A stretch of 33,396 bases of DNA from a virus. Taxonomy: Duplodnaviria; Caudoviricetes. The position numbers were made by a program, and so were the translations under genes. The notes beneath the pieces were generated by a model. The model ran no database searches, was not told the DNA's origin, and saw only the letters and a program-made list of their open reading frames with translations. The stretch spans positions 1 through 33,396 of the IMG/VR virus record IMGVR_UViG_3300005837_000440; one strand, written 5' to 3'. Below, one piece after another: positions 6,434 through 33,391 of the stretch; positions within the stretch are counted from its first letter, which is position 1, and each line of letters begins with the position of its first letter.

Positions 6434-7042
6434 CTATTTCCAAAGCACCTCGTAATCTTCGATGATGCCGGAATCTGTGTGTCGCGCCTTTACAACGCCA
6501 TTTTTTCTACCATGCATGTACAAGTCGTAATTCAACTTGCAATCAGCCAAGCAGTATTTCATTACTGCACCGTACTTTCGCTCTTTCCAAGCGACGGGTG
6601 CATCTTCTGAATGCATGATTGTCTTACCCTTACCGAGTGTGTGTTTGCATACCTCATCGAGAGGGATGGCTACACCTGCTACACTACGCAATGTCCATGA
6701 TGTATCAACAACATGCTCATTCGCTTTATTGAGAAGTACACCTGCATAATGCATATCAAGCGCATCACGCAAAACAGGTAAATCAAATCCGCGAATGTTA
6801 TGTCCAACAATAACGCCACCCGCGTCTACATGCTTTTTCAAATGCTCTCCGATGGTACGAGGATGTAGTGAATGCACATGGGCGTTTGGGATTTCTATGT
6901 GGTCTTGTTTCGTAAAGATGTGTGCTTCTTCACCATCCCATGTTGCAACCACCGTTGGTTCAAACAAGTGTGTCTTATCCCAACCGCCAATCTCATGCGA
7001 GTAGTTTGCTGTTTCAATATCCAATGCCATTATTTTGCTCAC
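6434..7042 (-). CDS. DEDDy/RNase H-like 3'-5' exonuclease
   Basis: ExoI LDIET, ExoII GHNIRGFD, ExoIII YCLAD. Confidence 0.85.
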   Translation of the reverse strand: MSKIMALDIETANYSHEIGGWDKTHLFEPTVVATWDGEEAHIFTKQDHIEIPNAHVHSLHPRTIGEHLKKHVDAGGVIVGHNIRGFDLPVLRDALDMHYAGVLLNKANEHVVDTSWTLRSVAGVAIPLDEVCKHTLGKGKTIMHSEDAPVAWKERKYGAVMKYCLADCKLNYDLYMHGRKNGVVKARHTDSGIIEDYEVLWK

Positions 7043-7293
7043 TTCAATACCCCCTTGTCTTCTTGCTCACGACGGTCATATACAGCATCTACTTTTCTGT
7101 GTAGCGCGTCTATTAACTCTCTTGTTGCCACAAGATTTTTCTTAGCATTACCTGCAATGTCTGCTATAATGCGGATTGTTGTTACCGCACTCGGCATGTC
7201 TTCTAAGTCGAGAGCAACATCTCCGCCTTCAAGCACATCAAGCACATTGTTCAGTATTCTTTTGTAGTGTTCTTCTTGTTCTCTTGTGTCCAT
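7039..7293 (-). CDS. Hypothetical helical protein
   Basis: 84-aa ORF, operon-coupled, GGAGG upstream. Confidence 0.7.
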   Translation of the reverse strand: MDTREQEEHYKRILNNVLDVLEGGDVALDLEDMPSAVTTIRIIADIAGNAKKNLVATRELIDALHRKVDAVYDRREQEDKGVLK

Positions 7294-7295
7294 AT

Positions 7296-8720
7296 TTATT
7301 CCTCCTTTGGTCGAATGTATTTTGAGTTTTTCAATGTCGTTGTTTGGAATTTGTCAGCCACAGACTTGAATCGTTCATAGGTCGCGGTTTGACTGCGACC
7401 CTGTTGGCTTTGATACCGACTCATCATTTCGCTTTTTAGAATCCATCCTTCTCCACGTCCTTCAATTTCAACAGCCTTACACGTCTTGTATGCTTTCATC
7501 CATCCTTCGATACGAGCCATCTTCTCAGCCGCCTTAGCGCCGACCTCAACCTCAGACTCAAGCCATAGTACAAGTTGTTCATAGATGTCGTAAATGATTT
7601 CAGTTGCCATCTCAACATCGTCGCCGGTGACAGTCCATTCATCTTCAATGTGGATGTTGTCACGCATGATTCTTAGCATAGCAATGTGGGTTGCAAAGAC
7701 AACCGTGTACGAAAGAACGTTCGGAATAAAAGAACAAACAACATCGCTCATGTGCTTATCCATACCACGAACCAATGTGTAGTACGCGTCTACAGAAGAC
7801 ATCAATTGCGGTTCAAAATCCGGAGCAGGTGTAAACATGTGGTCCATCATTGCTCGCGCTACTTCTTCTTTCTGTGCAGGGCCTAATCCACCCCACTCTT
7901 CATGAGTCAAACCTGCTTTTAACAACAGTCTTGACCTTACCTTTTCGCGCAACTGTACAAAGTGTACAGCAATGTCATCAAGCGACATAACGTCATCTAA
8001 TTTGTTTTTGAAGACGCCACTCATTCTTCGTTCCGATACCATCTGTCGCATGTCGTCGCTCCACGGCCTGTACAAAATCAGAACACGTTGGAACAGACCC
8101 TTTGTCAAGACATACTCTTTAACACCGGCAGGTGGGAATGATGTAATCCAAAACGATACGCGCGATTCTGTTTCGACCTTACCGTTTTTCATGTGTTTTG
8201 TCAATGTGTTACTGTGACTACCGATAGGGTTCATCGCTTGTTGTAGATACAGAATGACTTCTGAAAAGAATTGCTTTGGGTTGGCTTGAAGAAGGATTGA
8301 ACCTTCATCAAAATTCAAGCACTTCTTACCTGCAAGCAATCCCGGTTTTTCTACTGTGATGTATCCACCGTCATCATCGGGTATCGAGTCAATTGAACCA
8401 ATCAACGCGCTGTCCGTTCCACTTGTGAACATGTCAATCTCGATGTTGGCTAATTTGGCTACTTCTCCTGTAAACTCCCACGCAATCGACTTACCCGACC
8501 TTGTTGCTTGAATCCAAAATACATGTACGCGAGGGTCAAGTGCGCTCGCCCATACAGGTATTCTTACTTCATCGGCAACTGTTTGGCCTTGTAGGTAAAA
8601 GAAGGATATTAGACCGGGTACTTCGTTGAAAAACGAAGTCGTTCTAAACCGTTCAAGGTAATCCTTCACGATGGGGTATTCTTTCATTATGCTGTACTGA
8701 TTCCATTGTCTTTGGGGCAT
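7296..8720 (-). CDS. MCM-like AAA+ ATPase / putative replicative helicase
   Basis: Walker A-like QATRSGKS; TSGTDSALIG...KPGLL segment (MCM-like); Walker B LNFDEG; LQQAM; Arg-finger GLFQR; DVEMA helix; possible C-terminal wHTH. Confidence 0.7.
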   Translation of the reverse strand: MPQRQWNQYSIMKEYPIVKDYLERFRTTSFFNEVPGLISFFYLQGQTVADEVRIPVWASALDPRVHVFWIQATRSGKSIAWEFTGEVAKLANIEIDMFTSGTDSALIGSIDSIPDDDGGYITVEKPGLLAGKKCLNFDEGSILLQANPKQFFSEVILYLQQAMNPIGSHSNTLTKHMKNGKVETESRVSFWITSFPPAGVKEYVLTKGLFQRVLILYRPWSDDMRQMVSERRMSGVFKNKLDDVMSLDDIAVHFVQLREKVRSRLLLKAGLTHEEWGGLGPAQKEEVARAMMDHMFTPAPDFEPQLMSSVDAYYTLVRGMDKHMSDVVCSFIPNVLSYTVVFATHIAMLRIMRDNIHIEDEWTVTGDDVEMATEIIYDIYEQLVLWLESEVEVGAKAAEKMARIEGWMKAYKTCKAVEIEGRGEGWILKSEMMSRYQSQQGRSQTATYERFKSVADKFQTTTLKNSKYIRPKEE

Positions 8721-8834
8721 TTCTCTTTCTCCATGTGGTGTCGATTATGAGGGGCCGACGACTCCCTCTTGGTACAAGACACTCTATAACCATTTCCGCT
8801 TTTTCGGTTTCCTTCCTGTAAATAGAAAGATAAA
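8721..8834 (-). promoter_or_regulatory. Upstream region of the MCM-like gene: candidate promoter (CCCCTCATAAT) and conserved TTTTTCGGTTT box
   Basis: AT box about 24 nt before the ATG, preceded by CCCC as in the RFC promoter. 8789-8834 is similar to 19378-19421. Confidence 0.5.
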
Positions 8835-9527
8835 TCATTTCTTCTCAACCCTCACTTCGTCTTCACTTGTAAGGACTTCAATGACACGATTCCGTAGTGT
8901 TTTACCCATGCGCGGAACATTTCTCAAACACTCTCCACAAGCGGCTTCTTCTATAGAACCGCATGCGTCTACGATAGCATCGGCCATTTCAGCACCGATA
9001 CCCGGAATTGTAAGCAACATATCCACACGAACATCATTCGTGCTTACACGCTTTACTGCTTGAGCGCCGTGTCTACTCGCTCTTTTGTACGTTTTTTCAT
9101 GTAGCGCGACCATAAAAGCCGCCGCCTCACTTACGTTGGGCGCTCGGTACAACAAGCACCCAAAGTCTGCAACAATACGACCAAGAAAACCTGTCATCTG
9201 TTTCAAAGCCATACTGTGTGTAATAGTGGCCCCTCGCCCTTTAGCGCGAGCCACATAATCATTCAGATTCCCCCAAACAACGAGTCCGAAGTTACCTGCA
9301 TTCGCATCCATATTATCGAGTTGCCTCATCAAATGGCCGTTTCTCATAGACTGCATCAAATCATCAACGCTTTTGGCTTCAATTAACCAATCACCGCAAT
9401 GATAATCACCGTTTACCAAATTCTGCCGTAAAATGTTCACTCTCGGTGAGCGTGAATTAGCGCGTCGTTCAATTGCGTCCGGTAACTGACCTCTTTCGTT
9501 GGTGTCAATAATCAAAGGGTTGCTCAT
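8835..9527 (-). CDS. ERCC4/XPF-family structure-specific endonuclease with HhH
   Basis: IIDTNE, GDY, IEAKSVDDL nuclease motifs; LLTIPGIG and VPRMG HhH pair. Confidence 0.9.
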   Translation of the reverse strand: MSNPLIIDTNERGQLPDAIERRANSRSPRVNILRQNLVNGDYHCGDWLIEAKSVDDLMQSMRNGHLMRQLDNMDANAGNFGLVVWGNLNDYVARAKGRGATITHSMALKQMTGFLGRIVADFGCLLYRAPNVSEAAAFMVALHEKTYKRASRHGAQAVKRVSTNDVRVDMLLTIPGIGAEMADAIVDACGSIEEAACGECLRNVPRMGKTLRNRVIEVLTSEDEVRVEKK

Positions 9528-9754
9528 TCGTTTTCCTCCTTCGGTTTATGATTGAAGCAATAGTCGTCTGATGTTACTTGACGACAAGGTTTACCGCTTG
9601 ATGTCGTACCTTTGCAAAAGTATTTTTCTGGTAGCGCGTCTGTGTTTTGTTTACAAAGACTGCACAACTGTGTTTTGATTTTGCGTCGATTTCTTCGGCT
9701 TGTTGCTTTTCCACACAATTCACAGAAGTTTCCATTTATTGTATGCTTAACCAT
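9524..9754 (-). CDS. Cys-rich Zn-finger protein
   Basis: CELC..CSLC and CKG...GKPC...YCFNH; likely start MVKH at 9754. Confidence 0.65.
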   Translation of the reverse strand: MVKHTINGNFCELCGKATSRRNRRKIKTQLCSLCKQNTDALPEKYFCKGTTSSGKPCRQVTSDDYCFNHKPKEENE

Positions 9755-9872
9755 CAAATGCCACCTTGTAGATGTAATGCAACGGTATGAGGAACAGCAA
9801 CAATATGGGTAGAACGATAATGGAGATGATAGCAACGATAACTTCCGTCCATCTAACCACCTTCTTCCCCAT
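9747..9872 (-). CDS. Small membrane protein
   Basis: MGKKVVRWTEVIVAIISIIVLPILLLFLIPL...; overlaps its neighbours in operon fashion. Confidence 0.55.
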   Translation of the reverse strand: MGKKVVRWTEVIVAIISIIVLPILLLFLIPLHYIYKVAFDG

Positions 9873-10941
9873 CGTGTTCACCTGTTCCATCCCATAACTG
9901 ACACTTACCAATGCACAAGCCTTTACCAATCAAACTTGCGCATGATTCTTGATAACCACCCTCAACTATGGAGTCGGTATGATAGCGCGTTCTGTTTTCA
10001 TCGTAGTCCGCCCATTGCAAACTCTCGATAAATTCAGTAATGGTAAGTGTATGCTTACTTCGCATTTGTGTTGTGGTTTTCTCAATCGGTAGAAAGTTTC
10101 TCAGCCTCGCGGCAAGATACATTACAAGACTTGCGCGACTTACATGTGGAGGGTTGCTTCCAACTTGACAAGCGGCTTCAACCAAGCATGGTAGTATCTT
10201 GATTTTACCCATGTTCACCGTATCGAACTGAACAGGTTCACCATCGACAACTCGGAAGTTGCTCTTCTTCACTTCTTCAAGAGGTAGCGACATACCATGC
10301 GTACCGTAATAGAAAGAGGTGTTGTTTGGCTTCTGTGCCATTTCGCAAATCTCATCCCAACTCAAACTCAAGAGTTCTGTTGTCATTGGTATGCTCCATC
10401 TTAAGACATGCTCCTTTGCGTTGTACGAATTAGGTATTCGTATCATTCGCGCTAAATCAAAAGGTACTGCGGGGTCCATGCAGTACAGACCCATTGATTC
10501 TTTCAAGCCATTGATAACCTTTCGACCCGCCGCTTTAATGTGTGATACATCTCTTCCACAGGAGGGTAGATGCGTTCTATCAAGCGCTATCCAAATGTGA
10601 AAACCGTTTCCGCTAAACCAAACAGCATGTGATATGTCCTGTTCTAACAGAAAAAGATGAAGACGCTCTACTTGTTCTACAACCTCATCACCTTCAACCT
10701 CGACCATCTCACTCCCCTTCCGATACTTCTTATCGAAGTCCAAAACGAAGTTGCGAACGATGGCGGTATTGTATTCCGCGCGAGTTCCTTTTGGTTTTAA
10801 TGCTCGGAATGAATACACAGACATGTAAGCGCATTGACTGTTTCTCAATGTCGCCCAATACTTCTCAAACTCACCTTGATTGTGTACAACCTTACGAAAC
10901 AATCCAACCTCTTTGGGATAACCCAACTTAAGCGGTTTCAT
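9853..10941 (-). CDS. Archaeo-eukaryotic primase: PriS catalytic domain fused to PriL-like Cys4 C-terminal domain
   Basis: LDFD (motif I), FSGNGFHIW (motif II), DLARMIRIPNS (motif III); C-terminal LPC..H..R...SC..L...GLC...C. Confidence 0.85.
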   Translation of the reverse strand: MKPLKLGYPKEVGLFRKVVHNQGEFEKYWATLRNSQCAYMSVYSFRALKPKGTRAEYNTAIVRNFVLDFDKKYRKGSEMVEVEGDEVVEQVERLHLFLLEQDISHAVWFSGNGFHIWIALDRTHLPSCGRDVSHIKAAGRKVINGLKESMGLYCMDPAVPFDLARMIRIPNSYNAKEHVLRWSIPMTTELLSLSWDEICEMAQKPNNTSFYYGTHGMSLPLEEVKKSNFRVVDGEPVQFDTVNMGKIKILPCLVEAACQVGSNPPHVSRASLVMYLAARLRNFLPIEKTTTQMRSKHTLTITEFIESLQWADYDENRTRYHTDSIVEGGYQESCASLIGKGLCIGKCQLWDGTGEHDGEEGG

Positions 10942-11857
10942 TTGAACCACCCATAGGTATCGCATACTTCGGGCATAGTTCAATCACTTGACACCATCCA
11001 CACTTGAAGTCTTGGTCTGTTGTAGGAAAGTGTTCATCAAGATACATCTTGATAAGGTCGCGCATCAGTTTCATCATGCTTCGTTCGCTCACGGTTTTCA
11101 CCTTTTCAATCGTCCAATGGTCGGCGGCTGAATAGCGCCATCCCCAATGTGTAACGGGTCTGTCGATGTTGTTTTCTTTGAGGAATTCGCTATCGCTGTT
11201 GTCGATGAGGAATTTGTAATACGCCATTTCTTTGCGCATGTTGGACATTTTGTTATCCTTCCACTTACCGGTTTTCAATTCAAACAACAGAAGGCCACCA
11301 TCGTCCGCTTCAAACACACGGTCAATGATTCCGACAAACTGCACAGGTATTGTGCCATAGCCGGGTACTTCTACTTCGCGCTTAACTTCGATACGAACCT
11401 CATTGGCTAATGGTTGCGCTGTTTCACTTATACTCATACGCGCTGATTCATATTTCATCAACCAATCCATGTTTCTTTCGTAGTCCTCGTCATAGAATGG
11501 AAATTCCTTGTTCTCCTTTCGTCGGTTGTTTACAATCTCAGTCGGTGTTGGGATGTAACGTTTCAACGACTTAGAGATGTCGATACCTTTCTGTGCGGCG
11601 ATATGCAATGTATGTAAATCTCCACTATCACGCAGTTTGTCATAGAACATCTCCAACCCATTGTGGATGTCATCACCAACAACAAGGTGTTTCACCAATT
11701 CCTGTTTGCGCGGATAATTCTGTTCAATCCACATCTGTTGTGCGCACCATAGTGGCGAAGTAAGTGTGGACTTACTCATGCGAATAACCACACCTTCCTC
11801 TCCCATTTCTGTCGTCCATGCATAACTTGAGCCATCTTCGTAAATCTTTACCATCAT
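10928..11857 (-). CDS. Cas4-like/RecB-family PD-(D/E)xK exonuclease
   Basis: N-terminal Cys, G..IH, GIIDRV, FELKTG, EMAYY and C-terminal CGWC.....C. Confidence 0.85.
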   Translation of the reverse strand: MMVKIYEDGSSYAWTTEMGEEGVVIRMSKSTLTSPLWCAQQMWIEQNYPRKQELVKHLVVGDDIHNGLEMFYDKLRDSGDLHTLHIAAQKGIDISKSLKRYIPTPTEIVNNRRKENKEFPFYDEDYERNMDWLMKYESARMSISETAQPLANEVRIEVKREVEVPGYGTIPVQFVGIIDRVFEADDGGLLLFELKTGKWKDNKMSNMRKEMAYYKFLIDNSDSEFLKENNIDRPVTHWGWRYSAADHWTIEKVKTVSERSMMKLMRDLIKMYLDEHFPTTDQDFKCGWCQVIELCPKYAIPMGGSNETA

Positions 11858-12000
11858 TCTTCCTCCGCTAAAATCTCAAGGCAATGCTCGCAGGGTGCAT
11901 TGAGTTCGGGGTCTGTACTTAGACGCACATCGCATCGAGGACAGTAGCAATCGCAACCATCCGATTCAACGTGTCCGCAAATCAACTTTGCATCAAGCAT
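11854..12000 (-). CDS. Small Cys-rich protein (48 aa), not in ORF track
   Basis: MLDAKLICGH...CDCYCPRC...CEHC; start and stop are coupled to both neighbours. Confidence 0.55.
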   Translation of the reverse strand: MLDAKLICGHVESDGCDCYCPRCDVRLSTDPELNAPCEHCLEILAEEE

Positions 12001-12233
12001 CACTTCATTCCCACCATTGTCGGAGCGTCAATCTTGTTGATAAGGTAAAGGTCGGGCATCTTTCGCTGTAGTTCTTCTTGTAGTTCACATACTGCTCGCG
12101 CTAATTTTGTAGCGTTGTGAAGGTCTTCCTCAAGAGCATCAATGCGCGCACTTGCTTCCGCATCGAGGTCTTTCAACTTCTTTTGTAGTTCGTCTATTCG
12201 GGCTTCTAATTGTTTTACTTTTTCGTTTGTCAT
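12000..12233 (-). CDS. Coiled-coil protein
   Basis: Heptad LEARIDEL...ARIDALEEDL. Confidence 0.7.
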   Translation of the reverse strand: MTNEKVKQLEARIDELQKKLKDLDAEASARIDALEEDLHNATKLARAVCELQEELQRKMPDLYLINKIDAPTMVGMK

Positions 12234-12237
12234 GGTA

Positions 12238-14622
12238 TCACCAATATACTGCGGGTCGGGGTTCTCCTGTTGCCGCGCCCAAATCCCAACCCAAGATTTC
12301 GTACACGTTTTTCAGTTTGTTCACGATTGCCTTTTGGAGAATCTTTGTGGCATCGAGATTAAATCCTTCCATCTCCTTTTCATCGCGGTACGCTACAACA
12401 TCAGTTGATGGCATACCTGCCGGAACGGAATTCACATACACCCACTTAACAGAATCACCTGCTTCAAATGGGTCGTCATCAACCATCACGGAATTGTAAT
12501 AGTTGGCGGCTCTACTCGCAATTGTACCAAAGCGCATTGTACCGTTTACCATCTTTGCAACCGGCGCGCTCCCTATTCTTGTTTGCTGTGTCACTTCTTT
12601 GAGGACAACATCACCTTTTCGTACAGGGAGCGACAACTTCAACAATTCATCACGGACTTCGGCTTCATTCTTACCTTGACATATCATCGTCAAAGCAACA
12701 CGTTCAGCCTTTTTGGTAATCGGTGCTGTATTGCTACCTTTGAGGAAGTTCGCGGTCTTCATCTTCCCCTCGTCTTCGGGAGGGTAATTGACAATACCCG
12801 CGTACTTGTTTTTACCTGCCAACAACCAATAGTCATGGTACGCTTCAAGTTCAGCAAATAACTGCTTGTTGCCCGTAGCCGTCTGTATAGAATCAGTTAC
12901 GCGCTTCGCTAATGTTTCAGCCTCATCGAATGGTACTTGAATAAATGCGCTGTCCGTAAATCCATACAGTACATTGTATCCGAGTCTTGTTGCTGTGCTA
13001 TCAAGCAATCGAATGCAACGACGTCCTTCGGAAAGAATGGTTGTTGCAATGTCTACATCAGCCCATCCGTATCCAAGATGCGCGGTCATACCGTATAGGC
13101 TCGCCATGACGCGCTTTACTGCTGATTGTGTAGTGTCCCACGCGGCTCGTTCCTCTTTGGTTTTAGCGTTGCGCATGTTTTCTTTGCATGTTGCTCGGAA
13201 GTCGAAGAGGTAATCAACAACTTGTGGGAGAATACCCTTTGCTGATTGGTCCCAATACGAACCATTCTCAAGTTGAATGATACCTTCACCCGGACCATCT
13301 CGCTTTGTTGTGTAGCAAAGATTGAATCCTGTGATGAGTGATGGGTACAGTCCTTTGTAATCAATAACCGCTACACCCTCGTACAATCCGTCATCCGTGA
13401 TAATGAATTCAGCGCCTTTCAAATCAACCTTCTCACCTTTGTATCGAGAAGGTGCGATAAGATGTGTTCGACGTTGAATTAAGCCACGCGCAAAGTTTGT
13501 TACGTTGGTTGCTGATTGAATGGATACACCACACAATCGAACCATCTCAACAAAGAAGTCTGTGACGTTTCGCGCTTCATCAATACCACGAAGAAGAACG
13601 GTGTCGAGTAAACAGTAATCAACAAACTCTTCCCAATACTTGTACCATCCATTGTGGACGTCCATGCCCTCAATTTCTTCTGTGAGTTTTGAACCGAGTC
13701 CTAACTCTTCCGCGATAGTATTCAACTTGAGATTCGGTAGTTGTCCACCACCACTATCTTTCCAAACGCGTTCAAACCCTGTACCACTTCCCGCAGGTGC
13801 GGCAGTATCAAATTGCCATCGACCTGCGATTGGTTGGTCATCATGTCTGTAGCGCTCACCTTTCTTTGGACGTCGAATAACACCCAAAGGGCTTAACTTC
13901 GATGAGCCACCGTAACCGTAAATCTTGTCGAGGCGTTCAATCATGTGAGGTATGTCGAAGAATGTTCCCGCGTGAGCAATCATCATGTCAGGGTTGCGTT
14001 CGTTGAGAAAAGCAATGAAAGTATGATAGAGGCTTTCTTCAGAATTGAAGATATGAATATCAAAAGTAGTATCGCGAACGGTTCTATCCAAAACGCTATA
14101 CCCGCCTGTTAGATTATCAAGTTTGTCAAGATAGGGGCAGTTTGTTCTTTCATCAGCCCATGCGAAAACAACGGGTTTGTCAAGGTCGGAGTCGATGACA
14201 GCGATGACAGTTGTAAAGTTGTCGTCACCTGTGTTGCATTCAATGTCATACCACCATTTGCGCGGTTTCCATTTTGGCATTGCTGTGCATTCATTGATGA
14301 GATATTGGTCGATGAACGACATGTCACCCTCGTAGGTCTTTGGGAACATTTGACTCATCCGATATATGTCGAATGGATTGTGTGTTTCAACTCTATAGAG
14401 AAGTCCTCCATCAAGCGCTTCGTAGGTTTTGTCTTTGCACACCTTTGCTTTTGGATACGCTCGCTTCAATTGACTTATTGCAAAATTCGATGTCGAAGCG
14501 GGTATGTACATGTGAGGCTTGAAATCGTCCACCTGTTGCTCAACAAGTTTACCATCCTCATTTCTCCAACGTAGGTAGATTGTTGGTGCTTTGTCGTTGT
14601 GATAAATAGCATCAGCAATCAT
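12238..14622 (-). CDS. polB: Family B DNA polymerase with 3'-5' exonuclease
   Basis: YDIEC, FFDIP, YCLLD (exo); DYKGLYPS, KRVMASLYG, YGFTDS, KNKYAG (pol). Confidence 0.95.
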   Translation of the reverse strand: MIADAIYHNDKAPTIYLRWRNEDGKLVEQQVDDFKPHMYIPASTSNFAISQLKRAYPKAKVCKDKTYEALDGGLLYRVETHNPFDIYRMSQMFPKTYEGDMSFIDQYLINECTAMPKWKPRKWWYDIECNTGDDNFTTVIAVIDSDLDKPVVFAWADERTNCPYLDKLDNLTGGYSVLDRTVRDTTFDIHIFNSEESLYHTFIAFLNERNPDMMIAHAGTFFDIPHMIERLDKIYGYGGSSKLSPLGVIRRPKKGERYRHDDQPIAGRWQFDTAAPAGSGTGFERVWKDSGGGQLPNLKLNTIAEELGLGSKLTEEIEGMDVHNGWYKYWEEFVDYCLLDTVLLRGIDEARNVTDFFVEMVRLCGVSIQSATNVTNFARGLIQRRTHLIAPSRYKGEKVDLKGAEFIITDDGLYEGVAVIDYKGLYPSLITGFNLCYTTKRDGPGEGIIQLENGSYWDQSAKGILPQVVDYLFDFRATCKENMRNAKTKEERAAWDTTQSAVKRVMASLYGMTAHLGYGWADVDIATTILSEGRRCIRLLDSTATRLGYNVLYGFTDSAFIQVPFDEAETLAKRVTDSIQTATGNKQLFAELEAYHDYWLLAGKNKYAGIVNYPPEDEGKMKTANFLKGSNTAPITKKAERVALTMICQGKNEAEVRDELLKLSLPVRKGDVVLKEVTQQTRIGSAPVAKMVNGTMRFGTIASRAANYYNSVMVDDDPFEAGDSVKWVYVNSVPAGMPSTDVVAYRDEKEMEGFNLDATKILQKAIVNKLKNVYEILGWDLGAATGEPRPAVYW

Positions 14623-15392
14623 CAACTAACCCCCTGTTGGTGCTTGAGAACAAGCAGGTCATCATGCTCATGGTGCTGTAGTACGAGTGCCGCATTAGCG
14701 CCCATATGAAAATCAACCATACCATCGCTCATGCAAGCAAGCGTCTGCGGTAGATGAGAACCAAAGTGTGTTACTGATTCCTCCTTACCCGACACGTCAT
14801 TCAACTTGACGATACGGTTCACGTTCGCACCACCTACAACTTGACCTACTGTAACGACAAGTTCCTTATCCGTAGGGCATATCTTAACACGGCATGGTGC
14901 ATCCTTACCCGCAATCTTGACGGCTGTTGATAGTCCACGAATATCCTTCATGTTCAAATGTCCGTGAATATCCAACAGCGCCGGTCCAATCTTTGTAAAG
15001 TTCGCATCAACCATTGTCTTGATTGCAAAGTTAGCGCGCTCCAAACTTGCGGCTGAACGTATATGTGTGTGGCTCGGTAGGGTCAAAGAGTCCTTCTCTA
15101 ATTTCAAATTAAGAGAGCCGTCCCATTGGTTCACTATACATAAGTCTTGCGAAGATGCTTTAAGGAACGTTATAACCTTAGCAACGTCGCTGATGTATAT
15201 TTTACCGGGTCTGTACTTGATGTCAGCACTCAACATCACACTCATGCTCTTTGAGCAATAGTGCGTTGTAGTATCTACTGCACCATAGACGCGGTTGTCT
15301 TTTACATTCAACATGAGGTCTTCGATGTTGTTACCGAATCCGTCGATGAATGCTAAGAATTTCTTTCTGTCCACAATTACTTGTGCGGCCAT
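14622..15392 (-). CDS. PCNA-like sliding clamp (divergent)
   Basis: 256 aa with a two-domain beta-alpha-beta pattern; sits directly upstream of PolB in a module that also has RFC. No diagnostic motif. Confidence 0.55.
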   Translation of the reverse strand: MAAQVIVDRKKFLAFIDGFGNNIEDLMLNVKDNRVYGAVDTTTHYCSKSMSVMLSADIKYRPGKIYISDVAKVITFLKASSQDLCIVNQWDGSLNLKLEKDSLTLPSHTHIRSAASLERANFAIKTMVDANFTKIGPALLDIHGHLNMKDIRGLSTAVKIAGKDAPCRVKICPTDKELVVTVGQVVGGANVNRIVKLNDVSGKEESVTHFGSHLPQTLACMSDGMVDFHMGANAALVLQHHEHDDLLVLKHQQGVS

Positions 15393-15607
15393 TCAATAGC
15401 CTCCCCTGTAAGAGTGATATGCTTTGCGTGACATTTCTCGCAAAGTGGTCGTTGTTCGTGCCACCCATTGTAATTTACATCAAGCCATTTCAAGGATTGT
15501 TGCAACATGTCCATAGACGGTGTGTACTGTAGTTTGTCGCCGCATAGGTACAAGTGCGCGTTATCGGCTCGTATGTGTATCGGGTAATTTTTCGGTTTAT
15601 ATATCAT
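15377..15607 (-). CDS. Hypothetical protein with H/C Zn-binding residues
   Basis: HLYLCG...LCEKCH; probable start MIYKPK. Confidence 0.55.
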   Translation of the reverse strand: MIYKPKNYPIHIRADNAHLYLCGDKLQYTPSMDMLQQSLKWLDVNYNGWHEQRPLCEKCHAKHITLTGEAIEWPHK

Positions 15608-16007
15608 TTTCTTCACCTTCGTTCTTCGGGGCTTCCATTGGCACATATCTTAAACAGACGCAAGCGTAATGTGAGATAACCTTCTCACCGTCCGCCAAAT
15701 GAATCTCTTCAACTTCACCTGTACCACCACAGGCTCGACACTTCGGGTCGGCCTTAATGGTCATACGTTCAGCGAATATGCATTGGCATGGTTCGTTGTC
15801 AAAATCAACATCAACGCACTCACCTTCATGGTTCATAATGGCTCGTTGCGTCCATATCATACCCTCGCCACCACAGACCATGCATGCAGGGTCCGCTTCG
15901 TAGGAAGGGTATTTGTCGATGAGCGTGTCATGACTTCTTGGTCGCGCTTCGTTGTGTGCTTTTTCACCCGTTCTTGGAAAATCATTGTGTTCGTTTGTAT
16001 CCTTCAT
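15597..16007 (-). CDS. Protein with two CxxCxGxG...CxC Zn-finger repeats
   Basis: ADPACMVCGGEG..PCQC and ADPKCRACGGTG..ACVC. Confidence 0.7.
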   Translation of the reverse strand: MKDTNEHNDFPRTGEKAHNEARPRSHDTLIDKYPSYEADPACMVCGGEGMIWTQRAIMNHEGECVDVDFDNEPCQCIFAERMTIKADPKCRACGGTGEVEEIHLADGEKVISHYACVCLRYVPMEAPKNEGEENDI

Positions 16008-16987
16008 ATTCCGTCCTCTCGTAGTTCCGGAAGTCCAAACCATTCCGGTGCTTCTTCTTTCTTGGTCTTCATGATAATCCTTCGTTGGTCAAGAAGTTGA
16101 GGATTGGTTCGGCATTTAACGAATTCAACCTCGTAGTTCATTTGTCCTGTAGGAGCGCCGTTCTCATCTCGCACTTTGGTCTTGTGGAAGTAGATGATTT
16201 GATTCATGTGGTTAGCGGTTTGCTTCTCCCATGCAGGTTTCTTACCGATGATTGCACCGGTCTTATCCTGTAGTTCCTTGAAGTGTGTTTCCCAATAGAC
16301 GCGGACACCTAATCCCATCAACACTTTGCTGATTGCTGTCAATTGATGAAATCGAGTTGTGCGAATTTGCCAATTGAATCGCATACCAACTTGTTCATGA
16401 GGCTTTACCTTAGCACCAATACCGTCCGGCGCGGTTCCCAAATCTTCAATGAACATACAGTTCTTACAAACTTCATCCCATTGGTCCAAACCCGTTACTA
16501 ACAACGAATTCAGTTTTGGTTTGTTGCCCGGATTTCTCGCCCACTCAACAAGTGTTCTACCGATGTTCATGACTCTCGCATGTGTTGCGGGATAGTCGAA
16601 GGCATCTCTTGTATCACTTTGCATGACCCACGGTGACAGCACTCGGATGTTTCTTGAATGCGCGCGGTGGTGAGATGTGCGGATGGTTTGTCCGCCACCA
16701 TCAAAGTCGAGAACGAAGATGACTTCGCCGTCCTTGATTTCTTCATCTGTTAGACTGTCGAGAACGATACCCGTCTTACCTGCACCTTCTGCTCCAACCA
16801 ATGCGCATAGCGTTTGATTGTCCGGTAGGATGTCAGCCGACTCTTGAATCTCATCCCAAATGGATGCTCCAATTGGCGCTCCTGTCTTTTGTTCTTCTTC
16901 CAAAGATACCGGAGGAAACGTTGTTGCTTCGTCCAATGTCTTTGTTTCTTGTTCTGCTTGCTCTTGTAAATCCTTTAGATTTGCCAT
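16004..16987 (-). CDS. P-loop ATPase, RecA/Sak4 (AAA_24)-like recombination protein
   Basis: GAEGAGKT, VLDFDGG, WETH, KCR; lies next to the putative SSB. Confidence 0.7.
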   Translation of the reverse strand: MANLKDLQEQAEQETKTLDEATTFPPVSLEEEQKTGAPIGASIWDEIQESADILPDNQTLCALVGAEGAGKTGIVLDSLTDEEIKDGEVIFVLDFDGGGQTIRTSHHRAHSRNIRVLSPWVMQSDTRDAFDYPATHARVMNIGRTLVEWARNPGNKPKLNSLLVTGLDQWDEVCKNCMFIEDLGTAPDGIGAKVKPHEQVGMRFNWQIRTTRFHQLTAISKVLMGLGVRVYWETHFKELQDKTGAIIGKKPAWEKQTANHMNQIIYFHKTKVRDENGAPTGQMNYEVEFVKCRTNPQLLDQRRIIMKTKKEEAPEWFGLPELREDGI

Positions 16988-16992
16988 TCCTT

Positions 16993-18315
16993 TCACTCTC
17001 CATCTCCTTCAAATTGGTTGGAGTTGGTGTTACCACCCTCACCTGCGGGAATTGCATAGCGAGGTACTGCATGAATACCAACTGCGCTGATTTTAGGAGT
17101 GTCACCATCTTCTCTCTTGGTAAGACCGAGCCGACCATAGATGAAGACTGTGGATTTTACTGCGTATGGTTTCCAACCTTCTTCGGTTGCATACTCAAAC
17201 ACATGTCCGTTGTCGCCTAAGAAACCGTGAATGCTGATTCCAACATCACGTCGGTTGTCATCGCCAAATGTTCGCATCAAATCAAAGGAAGTGACGCGCA
17301 TGAAATATGTGTAACCACTTGGGTCATACTCATAGTCGCTCGGTTCTAAACGAAGGTCGCTAACTCGCGCCTTGATGAGTACCATAGGTCCAACAGGGTT
17401 CGGAATACCCGCAATCATTTCGCTCTTCGTTTCAAAGATTTCAGTCAATGTAGACAAGTCCTTGACGAAAGTTGTTGAGGTTGGTAGAAGGCGTTCCGGC
17501 TTAACTGCATCAGCGTACTGCTCTTCAACAATACCACCGTATGTGATAGCCGATGGGAACGGTAGTGTGTTCCACACGTCTTCCCATCCTTTGCTGACAT
17601 TCTTTCGCTCTCGGACACTCACAGTACATTCCGAAAACATCTGAGGTACATGCCACTCATTCGGGTCTTTGGATGTTACAGTAAGGCGCAAGTGGCTTTG
17701 TGCGTCCATGAAATTCTCCTTCTCGTTTCCGTAGAAATGGTAAGTGCGTTGCCATCGGTAAGGTGTGATAGGTTCACCGAAGCGACCCCAATCCGGATTG
17801 TTTTGTAGAATGGCGACTGATAGACCATGCTCTTCAAACAAGAACCACGGCTTTTCATCCGCGCTTTCTTCTGTTTTCTTGACACCATCTTTACCTTCAA
17901 GCATCCATACACCGTCTTGAGTAAAAGCGCGAGCAACAAGACCATTCTCAATTGCTTCACTCATATCATTAAGTGCGGCTGATACAGCCGGCGCTCTCTT
18001 TCGTTCTTGTGCATCTCGCACCTTGCTGTCGATACCAATAAAGTACCCTACAAGTTTAACTGCGTTCGACGCTGATGTGTTCGACATCACTCTTCGTTCT
18101 ACGATGAAGGATTCGGCGGCTTCGATTAGGAAGTCGTCATCTTCTTCACTTGGGTTACTAATTCCGAGGTCGGACGCAAGGTATTCTTCAAATGCGTCAT
18201 AAGATTCGGTCACCGTCTTGCTGTGCTTTTCAGCCCACCATTTCAATCGCTCTTCCACCTCCGAGTGAAAGGTTTGTTCGTTGTTGCTTGCTTCGTTTTG
18301 TTCGTTTAGGTTCAT
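16993..18315 (-). CDS. Putative ssDNA-binding/RPA-like protein
   Basis: Acidic 440-aa protein with aromatic beta-rich segments and an acidic tail, between RFC and the recombinase. Function is inferred from context only. Confidence 0.4.
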   Translation of the reverse strand: MNLNEQNEASNNEQTFHSEVEERLKWWAEKHSKTVTESYDAFEEYLASDLGISNPSEEDDDFLIEAAESFIVERRVMSNTSASNAVKLVGYFIGIDSKVRDAQERKRAPAVSAALNDMSEAIENGLVARAFTQDGVWMLEGKDGVKKTEESADEKPWFLFEEHGLSVAILQNNPDWGRFGEPITPYRWQRTYHFYGNEKENFMDAQSHLRLTVTSKDPNEWHVPQMFSECTVSVRERKNVSKGWEDVWNTLPFPSAITYGGIVEEQYADAVKPERLLPTSTTFVKDLSTLTEIFETKSEMIAGIPNPVGPMVLIKARVSDLRLEPSDYEYDPSGYTYFMRVTSFDLMRTFGDDNRRDVGISIHGFLGDNGHVFEYATEEGWKPYAVKSTVFIYGRLGLTKREDGDTPKISAVGIHAVPRYAIPAGEGGNTNSNQFEGDGE

Positions 18316-19241
18316 ACTTGTTCCTCCTTTTTGTTTGTTTCTTGTCTATACAGGGTTGCTATGAAGTAGTCCACGAAGGACCGACTCGATAGGGGCCATG
18401 TGTGCATTCGTAAAACGAAATCTCCCCACACAGACAAGAAGGTATATAATTGTTCTGCCTCAAAACCGACAGAAGTGGCATAATCATGGAGTTTTACCAT
18501 GACGCCGTGTATAGTTGCGTTGTTACTTGAAATCATTTCAAGCATAACTTTGTGAAGTTCTTCCCATTCACCCGCCGCAATCAACATCGCGGCCTTATCG
18601 AAGTCTGTTGAATTCGTTGGGAATGGTTTTCCACTCGTCAAGAAATTTTGCATTGCTCGCAAATCGTCACCGTAATGCAACTTAAGCAGTTTTGCATCTG
18701 CTTGAAGCATGCGTGGTGCGTCAATGATATTGTGGTCAAAGAGAAGTTGCACATAGGCGTCTATATCTTTTTCACTATAGTCACCGAACGTGAATTTCGT
18801 GCAACGTGATTGAAGCGCGGGGATGATTGCTGATATGTCATTGCATGTTAGAATGAAATTGACTTCGGATTTTTCCATGATTCGTCGTAGCGCTTCTTGT
18901 GCTTGTTTTGTTAGACCATCGGCCTCATCCAATAGAATCCATATCTGTCGCCAAAGAGGATTGCTTTGTGCTAACTCCTTGACCTTTGTTCTGATGTGGT
19001 CGATTCCGCGCTCATCAGAAGCGTTGAATTCGACAATCTCATGGTCGCATTCGTTAGCGATAACATAGGCGGCAGTCGTCTTACCCGTTCCGGGTGGACC
19101 TGCGAATAACATATGTCCTATGTCACGCTTGTTTTCTGTTTGCTTCCAATCGTCTACCCAATAGAAGGGTAGTTTCATACTATCTTTTCCGATGCACCAT
19201 TTGGCTCTTTTTGGTTTGTACATTTCGTTTTCACCACTCAT
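18312..19241 (-). CDS. rfcS: Replication factor C small subunit (clamp loader)
   Basis: GPPGTGKT, EFNASDERGID, LDEADGLT..AQEALRR, LQSRC. Confidence 0.92.
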   Translation of the reverse strand: MSGENEMYKPKRAKWCIGKDSMKLPFYWVDDWKQTENKRDIGHMLFAGPPGTGKTTAAYVIANECDHEIVEFNASDERGIDHIRTKVKELAQSNPLWRQIWILLDEADGLTKQAQEALRRIMEKSEVNFILTCNDISAIIPALQSRCTKFTFGDYSEKDIDAYVQLLFDHNIIDAPRMLQADAKLLKLHYGDDLRAMQNFLTSGKPFPTNSTDFDKAAMLIAAGEWEELHKVMLEMISSNNATIHGVMVKLHDYATSVGFEAEQLYTFLSVWGDFVLRMHTWPLSSRSFVDYFIATLYRQETNKKEEQV

Positions 19242-19276
19242 TAAGAAGAATCCAACGCGGGAGTATTTAAGGGGTC
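19242..19276 (-). promoter_or_regulatory. Archaeal TATA-like promoter of the RFC-PolB operon (probably leaderless)
   Basis: ACCCCTTAAATA on the minus strand; the box ends 22 nt before the ATG at 19241. Confidence 0.6.
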
Positions 19277-19293
19277 ATGCATGTTAGGGTGTT

Positions 19294-19390
19294 TGTAGGG
19301 AGAGGTAAGACGCTCTTTTTCCATGTGGCATTCCGACCTTCTCATCTTAATCAACTACGAGAAATGCCTCTCCCTACACCTTTTACGGTT
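19294..19390 (+). ncRNA. Candidate ~90-nt structured small RNA
   Basis: Perfect 12-bp terminal stem (TGTAGGGAGAGG 19294-19305 / CCTCTCCCTACA 19367-19378), TATTTAAG about 30 nt upstream, T-rich tract downstream. Strand and expression are inferred. Confidence 0.4.
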
Positions 19391-19467
19391 TTTCGGTTTT
19401 CCTACTGAAACAGTAAGTAAACTATTTTCTATTTCATTTTCGTGAGGGAAACAGGAAAACCGAAAAA
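19389..19467. repeat. Perfect 15-bp inverted repeat around a 49-bp AT-rich spacer (candidate origin/operator)
   Basis: TTTTTCGGTTTTCCT (19389-19403) and AGGAAAACCGAAAAA (19453-19467). Confidence 0.8.
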
Positions 19468-19498
19468 GGATTCACATAGAAGCGAAACGTCAAGTCTT

Positions 19499-19840
19499 CT
19501 ATTCAATCAATTCGATGGCGTCGATGATGTCTTGATACGTCGCCCGTCGTTTGTTCACCTCAAGTAAACGCAACATCTTCAACATCCCATCGGTGTCTTT
19601 GACGTACTGCTTGATAGGCGTCAATAGGCGTATCAGCATCATTATCTGTTCCTTGTCTTTGATGACCCTCGCAGTTATCCCCTGCGTCGATAACCACATA
19701 TTCAATTCGGGTTCGTCCTGTGGACTCACAATAACACGCCTCGCGATTCGATACCCGATTCGAGTTCGTGGTGCGAAATGGACGCTCGCTTGAAACCGAC
19801 ATTCTCTCGCCAACCACGCAAGGAAGAAGTCGTCATTCAT
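19499..19840 (-). CDS. Degenerate single-motif LAGLIDADG-like protein
   Basis: FLAWLARECRF...RIGYRIARRVIVSPQD...LIRLLTP resembles the YLAGFxDGEGxF...GYRV...VxQ pattern of LAGLIDADG homing endonucleases. Confidence 0.5.
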   Translation of the reverse strand: MNDDFFLAWLARECRFQASVHFAPRTRIGYRIARRVIVSPQDEPELNMWLSTQGITARVIKDKEQIMMLIRLLTPIKQYVKDTDGMLKMLRLLEVNKRRATYQDIIDAIELIE

Positions 19841-21161
19841 CGTTCGTCCTCTCCATCAAGTCACCGATTTGAATGGCGTCGTACATACCGAGTGTGGTAT
19901 CCAATCGAATTAAATAAGGCGCGCGAAGGATGTTCTTCTCTCTATCGAATTTCAAGGCATGGAAGATGCCGACAGTACCATCGTCGCATTCCCTGTACAC
20001 ATTCGACTCCATCATGTACGACAGCGAGTGAGGTAATGCATCTTCTGCGACAAAGGCGTATCCGATGGGGTATGGTTCAAACCCATCAAGCGCCCCTATC
20101 TTCATTCTCACGCCCTCACTATCACGCTTACCACCGAGTATCAGAAGCGGTAGGTCAAAGGTTCGACGTGGTACAATGAAACCACCCACAGCGCCACTAT
20201 GAAAGTACGGGCGGTCACCATCAATCAGACGCAACGTTTCGTATCGCTCCAACGATTCGACTAACGTGCGAAGATGTTTCTTCGATTCGACCACGCGCGA
20301 ATTAGTACATCTTTCTATACGGTTCGACCTCCACAAATCCGGCGCATCGTCGCGGTACAACCATTCAACCAACGTACCTTCCCCGTCTACCTCCGCAACA
20401 AAATCAAATTCTCCATCAATGTCGCATTCGACATGGGACACGTTCGCGCCCCTATCAAAACAAAATACCCTCCCGTTCTTCCGATGAACAAAGTGGTGTT
20501 GTGATTTGATTATCTCGTAATGTGTATTTGAAAATGGGAGTGACCAATACGGCCAACGCGAATACTTCGGTCCAATGAAAGCGAAGCATGGTTCGATTGT
20601 GTGGTTATCAGACAAATCGCCCATGAAGGCTTTGAGGATGACATCATGAGAAGGCATGATTGTTCGCGCGTTCATCAACCTATCTCTTGAATAGTCGGTC
20701 TTGGTACAGACGCCACCCATGATGTTCGTATAATTGATGAGCGTTCGACCAAAACAGAATCCCCAAAACACAGTAGCGGCGATTCGACTCATGGACTTGA
20801 ATAGGATGTCAGCATTGACATTCTCTCCATCCACGATTGATTGTTTTAATTGACGCGCCTCTAAGAGTGTGAGTGATGATTCGACAACGGCGGGTGATTC
20901 ATCAGCGAGGATGAGTGGGAGTTCCTTTTCTTCCCACAGGTCATCGTACTCTTCGGGGAATATACCGTAGGTGGTGTTGATGAGCGTGAGGATGTGATTC
21001 GACTTCACACGGTCTTTCGGAGTGGCGCAAACAATTTTGATAATGTCTTCAAGATGATGAGGGTTAGCATACAGCATATCTCCTATGAGTTGATACTTCT
21101 CACTTTTCGTCCGCGCGGTTTGGACAGCCGCGACACAAGATGCTAAAGACTCAAGATTCAT
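19833..21161 (-). CDS. ATP-dependent DNA ligase-like protein, degenerate active site
   Basis: N-terminal helical DBD-like region (RTKSEK..LI), VHRKNGRVFCFDR, FDLPLLILGG, C-terminal LRAPYLIRLD (cf. LRFPRF.R.R.D). No KxDG. Confidence 0.6.
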   Translation of the reverse strand: MNLESLASCVAAVQTARTKSEKYQLIGDMLYANPHHLEDIIKIVCATPKDRVKSNHILTLINTTYGIFPEEYDDLWEEKELPLILADESPAVVESSLTLLEARQLKQSIVDGENVNADILFKSMSRIAATVFWGFCFGRTLINYTNIMGGVCTKTDYSRDRLMNARTIMPSHDVILKAFMGDLSDNHTIEPCFAFIGPKYSRWPYWSLPFSNTHYEIIKSQHHFVHRKNGRVFCFDRGANVSHVECDIDGEFDFVAEVDGEGTLVEWLYRDDAPDLWRSNRIERCTNSRVVESKKHLRTLVESLERYETLRLIDGDRPYFHSGAVGGFIVPRRTFDLPLLILGGKRDSEGVRMKIGALDGFEPYPIGYAFVAEDALPHSLSYMMESNVYRECDDGTVGIFHALKFDREKNILRAPYLIRLDTTLGMYDAIQIGDLMERTNDE

Positions 21162-21850
21162 TCTTCCTCATCCACGTCAAGATTGTTCAACGCGGACACT
21201 AACATGCCTCTCATGTGTGGTGGCACATCGGAATCCATATACTTGCTACCGAGTAGAATCACAGTTTCATTAACAATGTGATGTAGAAGCGAGTCGTTGT
21301 CTGACAATTCGATTGCCTCACCACGCTCGATGACACGAAGTCCGCGCCAATTGAAAAACAAATCATCACCCGCTATGAGATGGTAGTCCATCGGCGTCAT
21401 CAAGACCTCATGCACTTCACCTTCTTCTTCATCGTTCGGATGGGTTACACGCACAGTCCATTGGTCAATGATGACAGGCTCCCCGTTCTCATCTACGGAT
21501 GGTACAGCATGCATAGTCCATTCGGGGTTATCCAAATCAAAATTGATAAGCGGTATCCCCGATTCGGGATGCGCCCACGCTTCCGCCGCTTTTTGAGCCG
21601 CGCTGATTGGGTCTTCGATGAGTTCAGCACCTTCGATATTGAATTCGACTTGAATCTCATCACACACTTTCGATAGGCGTTCGACTGCCATAGCCGATTC
21701 GACAGGATATTGACGCAATGTCAATTCCTTTTCAGCAGTCTTTTCCAACAGCGCACCGCTAACAGACCATGTGTCACCAACGGCCATACTACTAAAGTGG
21801 TTATCTGTCCAATCTAAATCTTCTTTCTGTGGTTGCCAATCGTCAATCAA
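21158..21850 (-). CDS. Acidic hypothetical protein
   Basis: 230-aa ORF, overlap-coupled. Confidence 0.7.
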   Translation of the reverse strand: MIDDWQPQKEDLDWTDNHFSSMAVGDTWSVSGALLEKTAEKELTLRQYPVESAMAVERLSKVCDEIQVEFNIEGAELIEDPISAAQKAAEAWAHPESGIPLINFDLDNPEWTMHAVPSVDENGEPVIIDQWTVRVTHPNDEEEGEVHEVLMTPMDYHLIAGDDLFFNWRGLRVIERGEAIELSDNDSLLHHIVNETVILLGSKYMDSDVPPHMRGMLVSALNNLDVDEEE

Positions 21851-27255: not shown

Positions 27256-27968
27256 TCTCCCGTAACAGGATTGAACGTCGGTTCTTCATCGGTCATTTCA
27301 AAGTCAATAACGTCGAAGTCGTCATCGAAATCCTCGATGTCATCATCGTCGCTCATTGCTTCAACGATGTTATCAACAACGGCGTCTATGATTTCAAACT
27401 CTTCATCGGGTACTTCCTCCCAAATGTCATCACGGAACAACGGTGGTAGCAACGTGAATTCGTTCTCCAACGCTTCGATTGAAGGGATTGTTTCATCTTG
27501 CTCTACCATCGGCGCAACGATGTAAAACCATTCATCTTTGACGCTCAATAGGACAGGTGCGTTCTCAGTAAATTCATCGTCATGCTTCACACATAGACCG
27601 TAGATGTGTACGCGGTCATTTACACGCTGAAATTGGCGCAAGAACCATTGAATGTATGTGACATCGTAGGCCGTTCTTGAAATGAAGACCTTCTTGAGTT
27701 TTTCATATCCATTCTCCTTCCATTGCTTCTTTGTATCATTGATGCGTTGGTTCTCATCCTTTGGTGAAATGAAACCGAGATGTTCCCATTTTCGATTGTA
27801 GACAAGCGCTTCGATTGCATGCCATTGGTCTTGCTTTGGTTTGTTATCATCACGATTCAACTTTGAAGTGAATGGATGTAGACAAGCGACATGTGATTGA
27901 GAAACATGCGCATCACTTATCTTCACAGGTAGAAACTTGTTGATTTTATCACGACTTGGGCGACTCAT
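27246..27968 (-). CDS. Hypothetical protein with acidic DFD tail and FNPVTGEWE terminus
   Basis: 240-aa ORF. Confidence 0.7.
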   Translation of the reverse strand: MSRPSRDKINKFLPVKISDAHVSQSHVACLHPFTSKLNRDDNKPKQDQWHAIEALVYNRKWEHLGFISPKDENQRINDTKKQWKENGYEKLKKVFISRTAYDVTYIQWFLRQFQRVNDRVHIYGLCVKHDDEFTENAPVLLSVKDEWFYIVAPMVEQDETIPSIEALENEFTLLPPLFRDDIWEEVPDEEFEIIDAVVDNIVEAMSDDDDIEDFDDDFDVIDFEMTDEEPTFNPVTGEWE

Positions 27969-33032: not shown

Positions 33033-33391
33033 TCAGATTCCTCCAAATCGAAATCCAATACGTCTGAATCGTCATCATCGAAATCCAATACGTCTGAATC
33101 GTCCCAATCGAAGTCTTGTATTTCTGACACGCGCTTATCTCCTGTATTATCCTGTGTTGTAGGAGGTATATTAAGATTAGCGCCTATTTGATTTGATTCG
33201 ATGAATGTGTGGCATCCATCTGTTGAGCATTCCTTCATACCTTGAGCATGATTCCACCAATAACCATCGGTGCATCGAGGGCATTCGATTAGATTAGCGC
33301 TGACTCCACCGTATGTCAAGTGCTTTCCACCGTGTAGAACATCAACTGAGTTCTTCCACAAGTAAACGTGCGTCGATGGTGTGTTCACCAT
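33029..33391 (-). CDS. Zn-ribbon protein with acidic repeat tail (may extend beyond window)
   Basis: CPRC...CSTDGC; tail DFDWDDSDVLDFDDDDSDVLDFD. Confidence 0.6.
   Translation of the reverse strand: MVNTPSTHVYLWKNSVDVLHGGKHLTYGGVSANLIECPRCTDGYWWNHAQGMKECSTDGCHTFIESNQIGANLNIPPTTQDNTGDKRVSEIQDFDWDDSDVLDFDDDDSDVLDFDLEESE
33047..33103. repeat. Perfect 27-bp direct repeat, 30-bp period
   Basis: ATCGAAATCCAATACGTCTGAATCGTC at 33047 and 33077. Confidence 0.9.

Follow-up and report, generated by a model that had tools for sequence, protein, structure and literature searches.

The window, as the whole stretch of DNA analysed here is called, comprises 33,396 nucleotides (IMG/VR record IMGVR_UViG_3300005837_000440) and is, by its gene content, the replication module of a group A magrovirus. 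Its - strand carries replication genes for a thermosome, an ERCC4 nuclease, a primase, an unsplit PolB, a clamp loader (RFC), and an SNF2 helicase. This set, together with an MCM-like gene that is also present here, is that of the group A magroviruses (Magrovirales) of Marine Group II archaea, as given in the texts on these viruses (PMC5434244, PMC10768690). The MCM-like helicase gene (474 aa, 7296 to 8720, - strand, ATG at 8720) is named from its predicted fold. Sequence searches of Pfam, PHROG, and PDB with the 474-aa protein give no match, and nearly all top fold matches of its low-confidence model (pLDDT 65) are MCM subunits (E 0.01-0.2, TM approximately 0.3). Judged from this model, the name MCM-like is fairly justified, with MCM identity unproven. 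The promoter of the gene (8784 to 8821, - strand) consists of a repeat array (8821 to 8789) followed by a TATA-like hexamer (8789 to 8784), and its leader contains a small G-C hairpin (8745 to 8770, - strand) that is found at the same place in most close relatives. Elsewhere in the window, short acidic (Asp-rich) coding repeats are common to three genes (32318 to 32416, 33041 to 33103, and 27318 to 27350). The PolB match of one relative (L013, 5823 to 8182) is not readable in one frame, and this PolB reference was left out of the alignment for want of a clean translation.

The element of interest lies in a gap of 257 nt between a 113-aa gene (19499 to 19840, - strand) and the RFC gene (18312 to 19241, - strand), from which the predicted RNA diverges. 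As the first-pass annotation had described, a TATA-like box (TATTTAAG, 19264 to 19271) stands 30 nt ahead of a perfect 12-bp stem, whose 5' arm (19294 to 19305) and 3' arm (19367 to 19378) on the + strand are exact reverse complements. The arms enclose a loop of 61 nt (19306 to 19366), and a T-rich tract follows, with TTTT at 19381 to 19384. Within the loop, the segment from 19313 to 19328 is identical at 15 of 16 positions to 8723 to 8738, and the odd position becomes a G-U pair when a + strand RNA is laid on the leader of the MCM-like gene. These features outline a predicted small RNA of approximately 90 nt (19294 to 19384, + strand) with a terminal stem, an open pyrimidine-rich loop, and a short U tail, the 5' end of which is predicted at 19294 or 19295. 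The hairpin folds modestly better than shuffled sequences (z -1.8 on the + strand and -2.6 on the - strand). A CGCG-type word (19255 to 19262) lies a few bases past the RFC TATA box in most relatives, whether the stem is present or not.

On its far side the stem adjoins an A-rich repeat array (19378 to 19410, - strand) and an AT-rich inverted repeat (19380 to 19470) that folds better than shuffles with z -3.2 and -3.6. Relatives without the stem have such an inverted repeat too, and it is a candidate protein-binding site, replication origin, or shared regulator site. The T-rich tract past the stem is at once the start of the 33-nt array motif and part of one arm of this repeat, and the first-pass annotation had overlooked both. 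The 113-aa gene is the upstream neighbour at every locus examined and encodes a protein with a predicted single LAGLIDADG-type fold: its model (pLDDT 88) matches LAGLIDADG homing endonucleases with TM up to 0.78 and E of approximately 0.006-0.06. By eye, the acidic catalytic residue of the LAGLIDADG motif is absent. The modelled protein, encoded beside the inverted repeat, may be a domesticated DNA-binding regulator or an origin-binding protein.

The stem and the predicted transcript

Scans of viral and metagenome contigs yielded 56 distinct intergenic regions between the 113-aa gene and RFC, the window included; one further contig scan added no carrier of the stem, a search with RFC alone as the query gave no locus, and no relative was found in a genome-contig collection or a phage collection. 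A G-C-rich stem (5-9 G-C pairs) is present in 17 of the 56 regions, while the other 39 have 0-4 such pairs. The carriers form one side of a single branch (SH-aLRT 94) in a quick tree of the 113-aa gene and RFC with 65 rows, 17 of them carrier rows with near-copies included and L145, L182, and L223 left out. Among carriers the stem is 11-14 bp long and the element measures 46-90 nt from stem end to stem end, with one copy per searched locus and always at the same site.

The sequences of the arms are replaced between lineages and their pairing is kept. In 16 of 17 genomes a 5' arm pairs best, or joint best, with the 3' arm of its own genome, and no equally good pairing arises in 100000 permutations over 11 lineages. 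When all 17 copies were aligned with MAFFT, the arms came out of register; pair counts were therefore taken from nine well-registered copies or from pairing within each genome. In the nine copies 95.7% of cells pair (42-54% in slid controls), and four of 13 pairs are altered on both sides, the mark of compensatory change. A covariance model built from these nine copies together with their TATA and T-run flanks was applied to 46 sources, where it recovers seven of eight held-out copies on the same strand (the L110 copy at E 0.059; the L145 copy is missed) and has no match at E<1 among 30 non-carrier loci, where its single match has E 4.9. By these comparisons the stem is a conserved, clade-specific element in one branch of the group A magroviruses.

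Which strand folds can be read from the wobble pairs. Across stem positions 3-11 (L183 being taken only up to its bulge), the non-Watson-Crick pairs comprise 14 that are G-U on the + strand, none that is G-U on the - strand, and one of another kind. Since internal wobbles are G-U on the + strand, this is the strand that folds, and the asymmetry holds over nine distinct contexts (p 0.004). Single-stranded + strand DNA gives the same bias as RNA through G-T wobbles. In 16 of 17 carriers the stem begins 26-30 nt past the TATA core, although the intervening spacers are unrelated, and an archaeal start site is expected 26-30 nt past a TATA box. A TTT run begins 3-4 nt past the stem, again in 16 of 17. 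The exception is L145, in which the RFC TATA box is 45 nt away, a second A/T box lies approximately 29 nt upstream, and there is no T-run. In non-carriers the repeat array often ends approximately 25 or approximately 35 nt from the same TATA box, and the stem-to-TATA distance may thus have been inherited.

The first-pass annotation had proposed a divergent + strand RNA beginning approximately 30 nt from the RFC TATA box, and comparison of stem, wobbles, and spacing favours it. Because the stem co-varies, the wobbles fall on the + strand, and the TATA box and T-run keep their spacing, it is likely that a + strand RNA of 46-90 nt is made. In most loci the RFC TATA box also lies 33-47 nt before the RFC start codon, which makes its use in both directions plausible. 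When three RNA runs of the same study were compared with window positions 7000 to 21500 and with L125, they gave only chance pieces of 18-45 nt; these runs do not cover the virus and speak neither for nor against the RNA. A scan for bacterial promoters and terminators found nothing, as expected for archaeal signals. The element is probably a small RNA gene of the virus that has so far been undescribed.

The loop and the MCM-like leader

Across the 17 carriers the loop is 22-65 nt long, 59-78% pyrimidine, G-poor, and not alignable between lineages. No invariant protein-binding motif is found in the loops of the carrier copies. A CCUUC, CCUCC, or CACCU word stands at loop positions 3-6 in ten of the 17, and these words are complementary to GAAGG, GGAGG, and GGUG as they occur in the ribosome-binding sites of the viruses; once dinucleotide composition is allowed for, start-region words are only marginally enriched (p 0.056, 12 lineages). 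No conserved reading frame exists in the loop on either strand: sense-strand frames from loop ATGs encode 1-45 aa and differ between near-identical copies, and a small protein-coding gene was rejected. The predicted RNA is thus best treated as a non-coding gene of its own, intergenic and 10.6 kb from the MCM-like leader. Known RNA classes fit poorly. By the usual motif definitions, a C or D box occurs on the RNA strand in none of the 17 carriers, and the ACA that ends the stem in five of 17 is paired, with no conserved free ACA, which speaks against box C/D and box H/ACA guide RNAs. ARAGORN finds no tRNA, and no Rfam family reaches its gathering score (22 weak generic matches all fall far below it). 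A miniature inverted-repeat mobile element is disfavoured by the single copy per locus, the constant site, and the diverged ends in the partial genomes searched.

The candidate target proposed in the first-pass annotation is the leader of the MCM-like gene from -18 to -3 (8723 to 8738, - strand), including its GGAGA ribosome-binding site. In this genome the complementary 16-nt segment is accessible (mean unpaired probability 0.68), and the predicted helix of 16 bp with the translation-initiation region has an energy of -20.0 kcal/mol after opening costs, against -11.9 kcal/mol for the next of 18 start regions. It is the longest helix that this loop can form in the window. Sixteen-mers with one mismatch recur in the window (55 overlapping pairs at approximately 22 places). 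Among dinucleotide shuffles of the 61-nt loop, 16 of 2000 reach a helix of at least 16 nt anywhere in the window, a figure that overstates the strength of the 16-mer because the match was found after the fact; start regions make up 2.7% of both-strand positions in the window.

The 16-nt match is found in this genome only. The relatives with both the element and the MCM-like leader on one contig are L002, L003, L006/L007, and L070, and long helices are absent from all of them, exact matches to the leader of the same genome reaching at most 8, 6, 8, and 10 nt. An 8-nt word of the matching segment also occurs in the L070 and L223 loops and is absent from the L070 MCM-like leader. The target search covered approximately 8-33 kb of each relative genome and no host genome. 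Within this scope, loops match their own MCM-like leader better than shuffled loops do (p 0.018), with the ERCC4 (0.022) and PolB (0.047) leaders close behind. The MCM-like leader ranks first of 18 start regions in this genome, first of 18 in L002, third of 15 in L003, first of 16 in L006/L007, and second of 18 in L070. In a second ranking over 13-14 start regions the five genomes give ranks of 1, 1, 2, 1, and 1 as opposed to a cross-genome median of 4, and among 24 assignments the own-genome one comes out first (1/24 permutations, this genome left out). The leader also ranks first or second for foreign loops in seven of 20 cross pairs and in seven of 25 pairs with non-carriers.

Two out-of-sample pairs, built by matching overlapping contigs, fail: pairing L110/L192 with L004 (98.9% identical) puts the leader eighth of 13, and pairing L188 with L001, a proxy at 95%, puts it fifth of 12. 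Once these pairs are counted, the MCM-like leader is first or second in four of six relatives, and the permutation of own against cross pairs, this genome left out, stands at 30/720, or 2/120 without the proxy. There is no fixed seed position, as the pairing segment shifts within the loop, and tests of a fixed 5', middle, or 3' segment fail (275, 297, and 456 of 720); other genes reach 2/720 and 3/120 by chance among 39 fixed-segment tests. Across all called start regions of 14 genomes no own-genome preference is detected (p 0.34), and duplex scans run over whole loci without restriction gave too much noise for targets to be ranked.

The proposal of the MCM-like leader as the target has therefore fared unevenly. 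It is the best target here, and own pairing slightly exceeds cross pairing in relatives (30/720). The 16-nt match remains private, neither out-of-sample pair supports the proposal, and the three fixed-segment tests all fail. Loss of the complementarity in relatives, which the first-pass annotation had taken as counting against its proposal, is half borne out: relatives have lost the 16-mer and keep a weak tendency. From these comparisons it is conceivable, and on balance doubtful, that the MCM-like leader is the true target. The broader idea, of a loop that works through pairing with mRNA leaders, comes just short of an even chance.

The shared promoter array and the origin of the element

A second block of similarity between the two places, which the first-pass annotation had missed, matches 19378 to 19410 with 8789 to 8821, directly upstream of the MCM-like TATA box, at 26 of 33 positions. 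The array beside the stem agrees with the MCM-like promoter array of the same genome at 20-22 of 26 positions in all five carriers tested, whereas the same comparison gives 13-16 of 26 in 13 non-carriers. In L003 the inverted-repeat arm and the MCM-like promoter array are identical over 20 nt, and in the carrier clade one arm of the inverted repeat co-varies with that array. The distance from the 16-mer to the array is 49 nt at the element and 50 nt at the MCM-like gene, and the sequence between them is unrelated at the two places (p 0.85). No helical phasing of the array and the TATA box was found, the matrix having misplaced the array in three carriers and in most non-carriers.

An array shared with the MCM-like promoter at a near-equal spacing suggests that the element arose from a duplication of promoter and leader. 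The simplest history would be that the MCM-like promoter-leader was duplicated into the RFC gap in an ancestor of the clade. Such a copy, read backwards from the RFC TATA box, would be antisense to the MCM-like leader from birth, and duplication and antisense function are thus compatible. The 16-mer may be a selected, a converted, or a lucky survivor. Two relatives carry other stem-closed inserts, unrelated in sequence to the stem element, in the stretch that separates the ERCC4 gene from the MCM-like promoter (L004, 9925 to 10172; L059, 7684 to 7882).

The first-pass annotation had offered a duplicated regulatory element as its alternative, and this holds as an account of origin and fails as an account of a functionless remnant, the stem being under selection for pairing. 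It is very improbable that the element is a functionless remnant of a duplicated MCM-like promoter-leader or a small inverted-repeat mobile element. The likeness of carrier arrays to their own MCM-like promoter arrays and the near-equal distances of the 16-mer from the array are what one would expect of a remnant, but the 50 nt that separate the two shared blocks have no similarity, the stem displays compensatory changes and a wobble biased to one strand, and each searched locus has a single copy. Duplication accounts for the origin, and perhaps for the 16-mer, but not for maintenance.

Mechanism, alternatives, and known systems

The favoured reading, held tentatively and at somewhat less than an even chance, is that the stem-closed element encodes a + strand RNA that damps translation through pairing of its loop with purine-rich ribosome-binding regions. 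The RFC promoter would fire in both directions, and its + strand product would be an RNA of 46-90 nt with ends paired into a clamp of 11-14 bp, a pairing supported by covariation. The clamp would protect both ends of the RNA, which would terminate in U-runs at the putative protein-binding array, and the open loop would pair with purine-rich leaders and lower their translation. In this genome the leader of the MCM-like helicase is the predicted best target. An extended form, in which a family of trans-acting small RNA (sRNA) genes was born from the promoter-leader of its target and switching on the replisome also throttles the viral MCM helicase, is unlikely as a whole.

Other roles for the element can be weighed against translational damping. 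The RNA may be real and act at the AT-rich inverted repeat or through a protein, as an origin-associated transcript, an R-loop, or a decoy for a pyrimidine-binding protein, the MCM match being incidental. This is an unlikely reading and one with some appeal, since the RNA would run towards and end at an AT-rich inverted repeat in a replication module, a LAGLIDADG-fold gene adjoins, the clamp, spacing, and loop composition are all that is conserved, and covariation with the target is weak. However, the region persists without the stem in 39 of 56 relatives, so that the stem is dispensable for any shared origin; the loop has no invariant protein-binding motif, and in this genome chance would seldom give a 16-nt helix at a start region. 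A further reading, quite improbable, dispenses with an RNA gene and has the hairpin form on single-stranded + strand DNA, for example at an origin. The G-T wobble would favour one strand there too, the 25-nt distance to the TATA box resembles the array-to-TATA distance of non-carriers, and the AT-rich inverted repeat is adjacent. The layout is nevertheless that of a small RNA gene: a stem of 11-14 bp closes an open loop of 22-65 nt, begins where a TATA-directed start is expected, and for 16 of 17 carriers ends at a T-run. The second A/T box in L145 agrees with this.

The RNA may instead be an antisense regulator of host mRNAs, or of genes in the other two thirds of the viral genome, with the loop tracking its targets. 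Loops turn over fully between lineages yet keep words complementary to ribosome-binding sites, and phage sRNAs acting on host replication genes are known, such as PreS on dnaN (PMC12197685). The top match of this loop in the window is nonetheless the MCM-like leader, and targets outside the searched module are rather improbable.

Translational damping by an anti-ribosome-binding-site loop, the favoured reading, has its closest relatives among sRNAs of Methanosarcina mazei. PMC5867862 describes sRNA41, sRNA154, and sRNA162 as intergenic RNAs with a loop proposed to mask the ribosome-binding sites of distant mRNAs, as would be the case here. These sRNAs are cellular and experimentally tested, whereas the element described here is viral and predicted from sequence; unlike them it has a single terminal stem that closes a loop of unconserved sequence, and it matches no Rfam family. 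Among phage RNAs, lambda OOP (77 nt), P22 sar (68-69 nt), lambda PreS (approximately 88 nt), and VP882 VpdS are of similar size and, as summarised in PMC12197685, tune translation or replication by base pairing. The phage sRNAs work in bacteria, OOP is classed there as cis-acting, and PreS and VpdS depend on Hfq (PMC12197685). Furthermore, the target of PreS is a host gene, while the target proposed here is the helicase-like gene of the virus itself, 10.6 kb away.

In archaeal viruses, the halovirus phiH1 makes an antisense RNA, as is proposed here. In PMC6210493 the phiH1 antisense RNA is described as a counter-transcript that mediates processing, and in this it differs from a stem-closed gene of its own with a distant leader as target. 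The halovirus HF2 has AT-rich motifs that recur between its genes and serve as promoters, a bidirectional promoter region among them, and no stem-closed RNA is described in the part of PMC8707807 available. Of the systems compared, these HF2 repeats offer the closest analogy to the array that the element has in common with the MCM-like promoter. The open-licence main texts on magroviruses (PMC5434244, PMC10160649, PMC10768690) do not mention non-coding RNA in the portions available, and no description of a trans-acting sRNA gene of an archaeal virus was found in the open-licence literature. By comparison of its copies the element is real, clade-specific, and structured, and it is so far undescribed. 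It is a candidate member of the class of trans-encoded antisense sRNAs, with masking of ribosome-binding sites its most likely mode.

Magroviruses are abundant and uncultured, and no work on how their nearly complete replisome is regulated was found among open-licence papers. The 17 natural variants, with their fixed clamp and free loop, make the question of regulation testable, and they may show how an sRNA arises from a duplicated leader. If the proposed reading is true, a conserved small RNA gene would be a first handle on post-transcriptional control in magroviruses.
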